Source: an uncultured bacterium (GTDB lineage: Bacteria > Chlamydiota > Chlamydiia > Chlamydiales > 2-12-FULL-49-11). From it: DNA of 58,974 nt. The stretch is taken from contig CAYZDL010000003.1 in assembly GCA_964477345.1 (NCBI GenBank), positions 1 through 58,974 on the forward strand. The letters are read 5' to 3'. This document shows, piece after piece, positions 56,817 through 58,974 of this stretch. Position numbers and translations under genes: made by a program. The notes under the pieces were generated by a model. That model did no database searches and was not told where the DNA came from. It saw only the letters and a program-made list of their open reading frames with translations. How positions within the stretch are numbered: position 1 is the first letter of the stretch; the number at the start of each line of letters is the position of its first letter.

Positions 56817-58118
56817 ATGTTATTGAAGCGATTTCTTTGGATACGGGTGGTATTGACAGTAGCGATACTTGGATTGTATGCGCCAAATTTGAATGGGGAA
56901 GTAATTTCTTACGACGCTATCGTAGAGTGGATCGAAGCAATAGAGAATGATGATTTTGATGGAATGGGGTCATTTTCTGAACTCAATAAAAAACGAAACA
57001 TGCTTACTTTTTTAGCATGGGCAGGTTTGGATCGGAATGATCTCGATAAGGCAATCGCATTAGAGAATAGTCTTGCGGAAGACATCGATGTGCAGCTGTT
57101 TATGTTATGCGGAGCATTTGGCGACTCTTGGAATAAAACTAAGGAATTTGTAACCGAGTATAAAAAAGAGATACTGACTGGTGTAGGTATTCTTATCACC
57201 ATAGCAGCCGCCGTTTTAAAAGGCGGTGATAGTTCATCGGGGAAAGCTAATTTTGTTTATCATGCACCCCCCTCTAACGTTAGAATACCTGAATCAAATC
57301 CCTACGGTATGCCTGAAAAGAATTCAGGAGAGACAATTGCCAAATCGTTTGATCTGGATATTGCCCCATTTTATGGAGAATATCCTGGTTCACCCTACGC
57401 ATATGCTTCTTCTGATCAATCACCAGAGATTGTTAGTTTCAATACGGAAATGGTTTCAATTTATAGAGATGACGTGTCAAAGGTGGTTGATGCTAGAGAG
57501 CCAGATTATTTAGAAAAGATTAGAGGTTATGGTTCTACTTTTGCTCACGAGGTATTGGACGGTGTTGATGAAATTGGTTCTTTTGCACCTGGAGTTCTTG
57601 ATGATAGTAAGAGAATTGGAAATCGATTCTTACCAGAGGGATTAGAAATCTCTCCCGATTTAATGAATCCTTCTGAAAATTATCAAAAGATAATCGCCGC
57701 TGGTCACGAAAAAATCGATCGTTTCTTTGCAACGAATCAAGCCGAGCAGTATACTGCAGATAATAGGACACAAGACATTACTATTGGAGGCTTTCCTCCA
57801 CCAACTATAACAAATGCAGGAAGAGCGACGGAGATATATAATGAAGCGCTAAAGGGGGGCAGACATGTAAAATTCGTACGCGACTATTTAGGAAAGAGAA
57901 CTAAAGAACTTAAAAAAGGGATAGTAAGCTATGAAAAGCAGATCGCTATACATCGAGACAAAATTGCTGATCCTTTGAAACATTATCCAAATTGGTATGA
58001 ACTTGAAGTAATAGAGCGAAATGCTTTAATCGATGAAAAATGGCCATCCGATATCAAACGATTGAGCGAACAAAGAGATATTCTTCAATCTATTTTAAAT
58101 GAGAGATTACAGAATTAA
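56817..58118 (+). CDS. hypothetical signal-peptide / membrane-anchored protein; candidate polymorphic toxin
   Basis: ORF opens at GTG 56802, but AAGGAGG precedes the ATG at 56817. Has 'MLLKRFLWIRVVLTVAILGLYA' and a second TM segment, 'ILTGVGILITIAAAVL'. Small tandem immunity-like genes follow it. No toxin fold recognised. Confidence 0.5.
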   Translation: MLLKRFLWIRVVLTVAILGLYAPNLNGEVISYDAIVEWIEAIENDDFDGMGSFSELNKKRNMLTFLAWAGLDRNDLDKAIALENSLAEDIDVQLFMLCGAFGDSWNKTKEFVTEYKKEILTGVGILITIAAAVLKGGDSSSGKANFVYHAPPSNVRIPESNPYGMPEKNSGETIAKSFDLDIAPFYGEYPGSPYAYASSDQSPEIVSFNTEMVSIYRDDVSKVVDAREPDYLEKIRGYGSTFAHEVLDGVDEIGSFAPGVLDDSKRIGNRFLPEGLEISPDLMNPSENYQKIIAAGHEKIDRFFATNQAEQYTADNRTQDITIGGFPPPTITNAGRATEIYNEALKGGRHVKFVRDYLGKRTKELKKGIVSYEKQIAIHRDKIADPLKHYPNWYELEVIERNALIDEKWPSDIKRLSEQRDILQSILNERLQN

Positions 58119-58122
58119 AATT

Positions 58123-58362
58123 ATGAGTGATGAAAAATTTGAGAGTTATATTTGGGATTTAACCTTTTTACTTAAAGAATTGGCTAGAGAGGCAAAAGAA
58201 AAAAAGGACAATTCAAAACCAGAGAATCTTGGTTATAGCATAGGGTATCTTATGGCTTTTCATAGAGTTATTGATCTCATGAAGCAGCAAGCTACAGCTT
58301 TCAATATTAAGCAAGAAGAGCTTGGCTTAGCTGATATAGATGCTGATAAAGATTTACTTTAG
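58123..58362 (+). CDS. small cytoplasmic protein, candidate immunity (copy 1)
   Basis: 79 aa counted from the ATG at 58123; the ORF opens at 58099 inside the upstream gene. It is paralogous to 58555-58794. Confidence 0.55.
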   Translation: MSDEKFESYIWDLTFLLKELAREAKEKKDNSKPENLGYSIGYLMAFHRVIDLMKQQATAFNIKQEELGLADIDADKDLL

Positions 58363-58372
58363 AGGGCATTGT

Positions 58373-58533
58373 ATGGATAAATTTCGTATAACGGTTGCAA
58401 GGATCATATATGTGCGGAAATTTCTCAAAAGAAAGATGAGTTAGTTGTTCAATTTTATCGGCATCCTAGGAAGGAATATTGGGAGTTCTCTTGGGAAGAG
58501 GCTATACAAGCCCTTACTATTGATTTTAAATGA
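58373..58533 (+). pseudogene. frameshifted small gene remnant (copy 1, also carrying a 30-nt deletion)
   Basis: 'MDKFRITVAR...' stops after 23 codons. A second frame then continues as 'AEISQEKDELVVQFYRHPRKEYWEFSWEEAIQALTIDFK*'. Confidence 0.4.
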
Positions 58534-58554
58534 GAGGGGTTAAAAGTTAAGATT

Positions 58555-58794
58555 ATGAGTGATGAAAAATTTCAAGGTTTTCTCATAGATTCAATATTTC
58601 TACTTAAGGAAAGTGCAAGGAAAGCAAAACTGAACAAGGATAATTCTGATCCCAAAGATTTTGATTATAATCTAGGGTATCTTATGGCTTTTCATGAAGT
58701 AATCTCCCTTTTAGAACACCAGGCTTTCGCGTTCAATATTAAGAAAAAAGAGCTTGGCTTAGCTGATATAGATGCTGATAAAGATTTACTTTAG
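58555..58794 (+). CDS. small cytoplasmic protein, candidate immunity (copy 2)
   Basis: 79 aa, with about 53 of 79 residues identical to copy 1 by hand alignment. The last 14 residues are identical. Confidence 0.55.
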   Translation: MSDEKFQGFLIDSIFLLKESARKAKLNKDNSDPKDFDYNLGYLMAFHEVISLLEHQAFAFNIKKKELGLADIDADKDLL

Positions 58795-58804
58795 AGGGCA
58801 TTGT

Positions 58805-58974
58805 ATGGATAAATTTCGTATAACGGTTGCAAGTATTCCGGATAGGGAGAAGCTTGTTTCTGAGATCATATATGTGCGGAAATTTCTCAAGAGAAAGGTG
58901 AGTTAGTTGTTCAATTTTATCGGCATCCTAGGAAGGAATATTGGGAGTTCTCTTGGGAAGAGGCTATACAAGCC
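58805..58974 (+). pseudogene. frameshifted small gene remnant (copy 2, truncated by the window end)
   Basis: 'MDKFRITVASIPDREKLVSEIIYV...' then a stop. The other frame reads 'AEISQEKGELVVQFYRHPRKEYWEFSWEEAIQA'. The frameshift is at the same place as in copy 1. Confidence 0.4.

Follow-up and report, generated by a model that had tools for sequence, protein, structure and literature searches.

A two-copy array of presumptive immunity genes with diverged cores and near-identical flanks behind a candidate polymorphic toxin gene

Introduction

What do two adjacent genes represent when their ends are identical and their middles are not? This question is raised by the final 2.2 kb of a stretch of 58,974 nucleotides (nt), positions 1–58,974 of the 117,153-nt contig CAYZDL010000003.1, that we refer to throughout, at its full length, as the window. 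The region holds a 433-amino acid (aa) open reading frame (ORF) followed by two tandem units of ~432 nt each, and every unit carries a small gene that we call A. An earlier note, made from the letters of the window, described an immunity-like tandem cassette with diverged cores and identical flanks, suggested recombination or gene conversion as its origin, and expected further copies beyond the window end. Polymorphic toxin systems are already known in chlamydiae (PMC3482391, PMC3150448), and the definition of an immunity protein in such systems includes polyimmunity loci and polyimmunity proteins (PMC3482391). Our analysis points to a polymorphic toxin locus whose 3' end carries a recombining immunity array of two A genes, a reading that we consider probable as a whole.

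Results

Anatomy of the repeat

The features on which the argument rests all lie on the forward strand and are as follows.

56817–58118, + strand: candidate polymorphic toxin gene (the carrier), 433 aa counted from its ATG, with an alternative GTG start at 56802
57813–58115, + strand: CT_A, presumptive toxin domain of ~100 aa, placed by a hidden Markov model (HMM) match and a 17-sequence alignment
58092–58105, + strand: left boundary of unit 1, the 14-mer ATTTTAAATGAGAG within the last codons of the toxin gene
58123–58362, + strand: gene A1, presumptive immunity gene cognate to CT_A, which encodes an acidic protein of 79 aa predicted to fold as a helical hairpin
58317–58401, + strand: 85-nt identical block, copy 1, which joins the final 46 nt of A1 to the first 29 nt of psiB1 across an 11-nt spacer
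58373–58533, + strand: psiB1, inactivated copy of a family B gene, placed by an HMM match and by DNA alignment with the intact B genes of loci L021 and L027
58523–58554, + strand: start of unit 2, the 14-mer ATTTTAAATGAGAG plus ~18 nt of diverged A2 upstream region; a toxin 3' remnant of ~27–32 nt
58555–58794, + strand: gene A2, 79 aa, intact, an anciently diverged A1 paralogue that keeps 18/18 family-invariant residues
58749–58833, + strand: 85-nt identical block, copy 2, 85/85 nt identical to copy 1
58805–58974, + strand: psiB2, running off the window, placed by an HMM match and by DNA alignment with intact B genes

Each unit consists of gene A followed by a decayed psiB and starts at the 14-nt junction ATTTTAAATGAGAG, which occurs twice in the window vs 0.10 occurrences expected by chance. 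The two 79-aa reading frames, their identity at 53 of 79 residues and the 85-nt block shared without mismatch, all reported by the earlier note, held on re-examination. The repeated 5' junction that it described is likewise a genuine duplication, with its positions and extent corrected to a 14-mer at 58092 and 58523. The similarity does not end at 58401: the last mismatch before the shared block lies at 58315, the copies are near-identical from 58316 onward, and past a 30-nt deletion in copy 1 they continue for another 111 nt (58402–58512 vs 58864–58974, identity 109/111). Promoter and terminator scans gave results at or below shuffle expectation. Fifteen of 17 nt are also alike between 57770–57786, within the toxin gene, and 58506–58522, the end of psiB1 just before the junction; this is probably a chance match, and may alternatively be the trace of a more complex rearrangement.

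What had been described as identical flanks, that is, as mere edges of the repeat, proves to be the start of a second, inactivated immunity-type gene. The 'ATG' of the psiB frames lies at 58373 and 58805, 11 nt past each A stop codon, and the frames align with a family of 20 proteins (72–79 aa; consensus MEKFRITVASLPDRExLVAEILYDGVQWAEISQE...) that we call B. Both copies carry the same frameshifting 13-nt deletion in the DGVQW region, near 58410/58411 in copy 1 and 58872/58873 in copy 2, and psiB1 additionally lacks the 30 nt after 58401 that psiB2 keeps as 58834–58863; the 3' end of psiB1 is replaced at ~58522 by the unit junction. By these lesions both psiB copies are pseudogenes, and the 13-nt deletion common to them shows that duplication or conversion of the flank followed the death of B. 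Intact relatives suggest what the gene once was. In L021 (GCA_027365995.1) a carrier with a different C-terminus is followed after 4 nt by an intact B gene and then by an A gene, whereas in L027 the order is a carrier ending in CT_A, then A, then an intact B. Because of the gene order in L021, we read B as the immunity-position gene for another toxin tip, an orphan in the lineage of the window and dead there.

Old cores and recently copied flanks

Across codons 1–64, A1 and A2 differ at 57 nucleotides, with a synonymous divergence (dS) of 1.49 and a nonsynonymous divergence (dN) of 0.26 by the Nei-Gojobori method; the dN/dS comparison that the earlier note had proposed thus comes to ~0.17. Across codons 65–79, dS is 0. 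Expressed as identity, 139/197 nt match in the A core, vs 85/85 plus 109/111 in the flank, and the psiB copies diverge by ~1–2%. In a maximum chi-square test the best breakpoint lies near 58299; 56 of the differences fall on the left side of it and 4 on the right, and the observed value is reached in 0/2000 permutations. Because a core dS of 1.49 stands against a near-identical flank and the breakpoint between them is sharp, we take the A cores as old paralogues or alleles under purifying selection, whose shared 3' flank was made identical recently by recombination. In keeping with old cores, the A1 core is nearer the A gene of L021 (70% identity) than its own neighbor A2 (59%), and in a neighbor-joining tree of the core A2 falls outside the A1–L021 pair.

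Upstream of A2, the region 58537–58554 has diverged to the same degree as the A core, and this suggests that A2 brought a toxin 3' end of its own. The earlier note had proposed a search for a matching orphan toxin tip, and none emerged: the CT_A HMM has no match upstream of A2, where toxin-like sequence amounts to just ~27–32 nt (58523–58554), and no orphan toxin C-terminal coding fragment of the kind seen in orphan C-terminal toxin (CT)–immunity modules of Rhs and contact-dependent inhibition (CDI) loci precedes A2.

The array is real and holds two copies

As the window derives from a metagenome, we asked how far the tandem arrangement is reproduced in other sequence data. Unitigs from other short-read runs cover the region with no differences (X1, 58316–58777; X4, 58316–58650; X8, 58474–58640), and these runs come from two studies other than that of X3; in all, the junction from copy 1 to copy 2 is exactly reproduced in contigs from three studies. 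The link from the toxin to A1 and the link from psiB2 to unique downstream sequence are each covered by contigs, and word depths are alike (6.45 vs 5.36). Two contigs from different runs, L001 and L002, carry the toxin and A1 at 100% identity and both end at 58349, the point at which an assembly graph of word length k = 31 has to branch as it runs into the shared block. The strain behind L001 differs slightly from that of the window, as its Rhs protein has 1715 aa vs 1723 aa in the window.

The end of the window at 58974 coincides with the end of similarity between the units, and because the window stops where that similarity stops, the array looked open-ended. The X2 and X3 contigs, which were aligned to copy 1 only, continue past 58974 with ACTACTGAAGTAAAGAAGATGTTACTTAAG. 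This sequence encodes ...TTEVKKMLLK, a normal B C-terminus (compare ...LTTAKKALLK of protein P0009), and not a unit junction. Since X2 and X3 read the natural B 3' end and no third unit, the array is closed at two copies, with its right boundary almost at the window end, and the further copies expected earlier do not exist in these contigs. A survey of copy number in 11 runs (depth 2–6x, contigs only, which drop rare variants) returned the structure of the window alone and no joints that skip a unit. The core and flank divergences, the significant breakpoint and the affinity of A1 to L021 uphold recombination or gene conversion as first proposed; no variant strain that would speak for ongoing shuffling of alleles appears among the low-depth contigs of these runs.

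Gene A and the case for immunity

Both A proteins are acidic (net charge -5/-4). AlphaFold models A1 as a helical hairpin (predicted local distance difference test score, pLDDT, 76), for which Foldseek gave no match better than E = 2, as expected of such a fold. The A genes and the read-through B sequence have no match in Pfam or NCBIfam at E<=1, 8/8 A-family members lack a Pfam match, and exact-sequence look-ups of A1, A2 and an 87-aa variant matched no record. A word-indexed search for A homologues yielded 8 proteins only. A profile search of 1.84 billion representatives returned 775 clusters (defined at 50% identity) at E<=1e-3, of which 279 remain at E<=1e-10. Scans located 14 A loci in GTDB genomes and 19 in JGI metagenomes, and none of the 19 metagenome-contig loci belongs to the window's own species. 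The genomes concerned represent Chlamydiae/Parachlamydiales, Verrucomicrobiae, Puia, Marinimicrobium, Myxococcales, Ignavibacteria, Anaerolineales, Cloacimonadota and Deltaproteobacteria. A1 and A2 have a G+C content of 33%, lower than that of the carrier gene (39%) and of the window as a whole (41%), which is consistent with genes of a horizontally mobile cassette.

The label 'immunity-like' that the earlier note had given the cassette is borne out by gene order. In ~18 of ~29 distinct loci, spread over many phyla, a gene ending in CT_A lies directly upstream of A, which starts 4–20 nt past the CT_A stop codon or overlaps it; the module of CT_A then A is found in Chlamydiota, Gammaproteobacteria, Myxococcota, Ignavibacteria, Anaerolineales and soil or freshwater metagenomes. 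The identity of the CT_A domains tracks that of the A proteins (r = 0.96 over 105 pairs, to which shared ancestry contributes), so that a small gene immediately downstream co-varies with the toxin domain, as in polymorphic toxin systems. Where CT_A is missing, A lies within strings of small genes behind other toxins: after an Rhs protein and a Cys_rich_CPCC gene in L007, between paralogous small genes in L013, and as an orphan in L008 and L021. Among A-family proteins (P0029–P0033, P0037, P0039, P0041, P0049), many have two, and up to four, diverged A domains in a single chain, and in some A is fused to a small domain marked by the motif DYQKRVWI...EGPECDDFDE. The latter domain is also encoded by separate genes on either side of A in L013, and Pfam contains neither of the two. 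A is the presumptive immunity protein for CT_A because of the adjacency of the two across phyla and the gene orders in L021 and L027, and because its orphan strings and multi-domain fusions fit the polyimmunity loci and polyimmunity proteins of PMC3482391.

One of these loci holds a classic orphan module of its own. In L008, a Parachlamydiales metagenome-assembled genome, two short ORFs at 6657–7361 correspond to the final ~150 residues of the L013 toxin (714 aa); these orphan toxin-tip fragments precede a 227-aa gene that matches DUF7945 weakly.

CT_A and its carriers

The 433-aa carrier has a hydrophobic, signal-like N-terminal segment (residues 1–25) and a single transmembrane-like segment (residues 118–137), and is conserved to about residue 325, beyond which lies a variable C-terminal domain; it is predicted to be secreted or membrane-anchored. 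It has no Pfam or NCBIfam match, and a scan of genome contigs with the protein as query found no relative. In L021, a 428-aa orthologue is 40% identical across residues 1–340 and unrelated at its C-terminus, and because the same carrier there bears another C-terminus, we read it as a carrier that exchanges tips. A conserved carrier with exchangeable C-terminal domains is what characterizes polymorphic toxin systems (Zhang et al. 2012).

CT_A is basic (net charge +4), and an alignment of 17 sequences with its 112-residue piece (57780–58115) shows the invariant residues L44, H58, P65, W72, W88, D91, I92, R94 and I101. The domain is predicted to be all-helical by a single-sequence model of low confidence. 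An HEPN-like Rx4-6H motif, considered by eye, was rejected as its arginine is not conserved. Against Pfam, the 17 sequences gave just scattered matches (E>=0.004) to unrelated coiled-coil-like families; a profile search of PDB sequences gave no match below E 0.27 for A or CT_A, and a word-indexed search with CT_A alone gave none at all. No described Tox-/Ntox or Imm family among the Pfam and NCBIfam models tested accommodates CT_A, A or B. The pairing of a basic CT_A with an acidic partner is reminiscent of nuclease-type toxins, a resemblance that we take only as a lead.

CT_A is borne by proteins of several architectures: Rhs/YD-repeat proteins in L011 (1763 aa) and L014 (>2001 aa), Rhs fragments in L015 and L019, a DUF637 CdiA/FhaB-like protein in L018, and the chlamydial carriers of the window, L003, L010 and L027, which are 430–480 aa long with a signal-like segment and one transmembrane-like segment. 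Glycine-rich hydrophobic segments lie just before CT_A on the Rhs carriers (~aa 1600–1650 in L011, ~aa 1880–1920 in L014, and in L015 and L019) and are absent from the chlamydial carriers; they may form an entry or translocation module.

Other toxin-type loci in the window

Together with the locus described above, two further ones make three toxin-type loci within 14 kb, interleaved with der and metNIQ. The 284-aa ORF at 45004–45858 has a match to TIGR03696, the Rhs-associated core domain (E 2e-23), and falls far short of a full Rhs protein; it resembles an orphan Rhs core with a C-terminal tip. Its end is overlapped by a gene of 177 aa (45849–46382) that could be its immunity partner. A full-length Rhs protein of 1723 aa is encoded at 48932–54103 on the reverse strand, with a C-terminal region that is alpha/beta-hydrolase- or lipase-like by eye, and the immunity position next to it is occupied by a 387-aa MORN-repeat protein (47809–48972, reverse strand, 41-nt overlap with the Rhs gene). 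At 40979–44707 lies a 1242-aa SNF2-family helicase whose best NCBIfam likenesses, all below cut-off, are to SCO1167-type, pilus-regulating Snf2 and ZorD/DrmD-like helicases.

Discussion

Our findings are best accommodated by a model in which CT_A would act as a toxin on its carrier and A would neutralize it, presumably by 1:1 binding. The two A genes would then form a small 'homogeneous polyimmunity' array, with A1 in the cognate position; A2, an old paralogue or a captured allele, would most likely confer protection from competitors that make a diverged CT_A variant. The mosaic pattern would have arisen by recombination between immunity paralogues through conserved blocks, along one of two routes. 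In the first, an old tandem pair would have had its 3' parts homogenized by gene conversion or unequal crossover. In the second, a toxin-tip/immunity module with near-identical flanks and a different, old CT-A core allele would have been captured from a sister strain and joined at the microhomology ...ACTATTGA/TTTTAAATGAGAG, which is the 14-nt junction. We regard the anatomy of the array, its family context, its divergence pattern and its two-copy limit as established, and we infer the toxicity of CT_A, the immunity function of A and the route of recombination.

We acknowledge that several points weigh against this interpretation. The single-sequence model of CT_A is poor (pLDDT 64, predicted template modeling score 0.27), and the domain has no recognizable catalytic fold and no Pfam or PDB match. 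The mirror-tree correlation between CT_A and A is confounded by shared phylogeny, and the same comparison could not tell whether A1 or A2 fits the resident CT_A. No strain with another copy number or allele appears in the contigs of the 11 runs, and intragenomic conversion and inter-strain capture both fit the data. Finally, the host is probably chlamydia-like, as judged by nearest homologues alone.

Two alternative explanations concern the repeat itself. A recent, simple tandem duplication of the A–B unit, followed by rapid diversifying selection on one immunity core, would explain a tandem arrangement with a defined junction, and diversifying selection is often reported for immunity genes. 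The pattern of dS nonetheless excludes rapid divergence after a recent duplication: the core is saturated (1.49) when the last 45 nt of the gene show 0 and psiB ~1–2%, the dN/dS of 0.17 indicates purifying and not positive selection, and the A1 core is nearer the A gene of another genome than A2, so that we give this explanation hardly any credence. An assembly artefact, in which alleles of co-existing strains were stitched into a false tandem repeat, is what the earlier note had named as the refutation of its own proposal, and the metagenomic source, a shared block longer than the k = 31 of a graph that must branch there, the two contigs that end at 58349, and the fact that no long read spans the whole 900 nt would all be in keeping with it. 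The mismatch-free unitigs of X1, X4 and X8 join psiB1 to the A2 core, however, and that junction cannot come from two alleles at one site; with the toxin–A1 and psiB2–downstream links covered, similar word depths and the junction present in three studies, we judge an artefact very improbable.

The remaining alternatives concern the function of A. Small, acidic, helical proteins encoded directly downstream of their partner are also typical of secretion chaperones, and the fold of A has no informative match, so that A could be a chaperone, adaptor or co-effector for proteins ending in CT_A, with two copies for two cargo variants. CT_A rides, however, on three mechanistically different export systems (Rhs, CdiA-like/two-partner secretion and carriers with a Sec signal), which makes a system-specific chaperone unlikely, and the occurrence of A as an orphan behind unrelated toxins (L007, L008, L013, L021) and in multi-domain fusions is a hallmark of immunity proteins (PMC3482391). 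Alternatively, A1 and A2 could, rather than being redundant alleles, pair as a heterodimeric immunity factor, equivalent to the two-domain A–A proteins but unfused, given that many family members hold two diverged A domains per chain (P0029–P0033, P0039, P0041) and that A1 and A2 are both intact and under purifying selection. At all ~18 other CT_A loci, however, just one A gene sits beside the toxin, and the motif of A1, like that of A2, is GYLMAFH, of the standalone type, whereas fused proteins have two distinct types, which leaves a heterodimer improbable.

A recombining immunity array behind a polymorphic toxin gene has counterparts in several known systems. Among the closest are esaG and tipC, tandem immunity genes for type VII secretion toxins of Staphylococcus and Streptococcus, whose paralogues recombine via conserved blocks (Garrett et al. 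2022, PMC9484751): there as here, non-identical immunity paralogues beside a polymorphic toxin have high-identity gene ends and variable cores, and in esaG/tipC homologous recombination through the identity blocks explains gain, loss and mosaicism. The families, phylum and secretion route are unrelated, however; there are two copies here, the block reaches into an adjacent, dead gene, and no copy-number variation between strains was observed (11 runs, low depth). Orphan immunity arrays of the Vibrio cholerae type VI secretion system (T6SS) arise by sequential effector displacement (Kirchberger et al. 2017, PMC5361080), in which old immunity genes are kept downstream with short 3' remnants of the displaced effector, through horizontal transfer and homologous recombination. 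The psiB copies, and A2 with its ~27-nt toxin 3' remnant, resemble this arrangement, and L021 supplies the alternative C-terminus with B at the cognate position; unlike the V. cholerae arrays, the present locus is not a T6SS locus, B is decayed, and A2 and the resident immunity gene are members of one family.

The locus also shares with polymorphic toxin systems in general (PMC3482391), and with the CDI/Rhs orphan modules (Poole et al. 2011, PMC3150448), exchangeable C-terminal toxins with the immunity gene next door, and with the polyimmunity of PMC3482391 homogeneous tandem paralogues and fused multi-immunity proteins. It differs from the CDI/Rhs orphan modules in that no substantial orphan CT fragment precedes A2. 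CT_A, A and B have no counterpart among the Pfam and NCBIfam models tested, and the 430–480-aa carrier with a signal plus a transmembrane segment was not found among described trafficking domains. We propose only tentatively that CT_A and A form a previously undescribed, widely distributed toxin–immunity pair (~775 A clusters) whose toxin fold or activity is not yet among the characterized polymorphic toxins.

The earlier note was right in essence and wrong in two details, namely the continuation of the array and the nature of the flanks, which belong to a dead gene. Because other systems have already established the general mechanism, the present locus is of value for annotation and as an example, and brings no new concept. 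The analysis provides names and boundaries for three unannotated families (CT_A, A and B) together with a tip-swapping chlamydial carrier, and with CT_A and A defined a simple toxin/immunity assay becomes possible. It further offers a compact example of how an immunity repertoire may be built, with ancient alleles set in recently homogenized flanks, whose copying the shared lesion dates to after the death of B. If the tentative proposal of a new toxin–immunity pair is correct, CT_A would represent a ~100-residue, all-helical toxin with invariant H, D and R and two W residues, and with a new activity or fold. Swapped C-termini and captured immunity alleles would then reflect active inter-bacterial competition among environmental, probably amoeba-associated chlamydiae.

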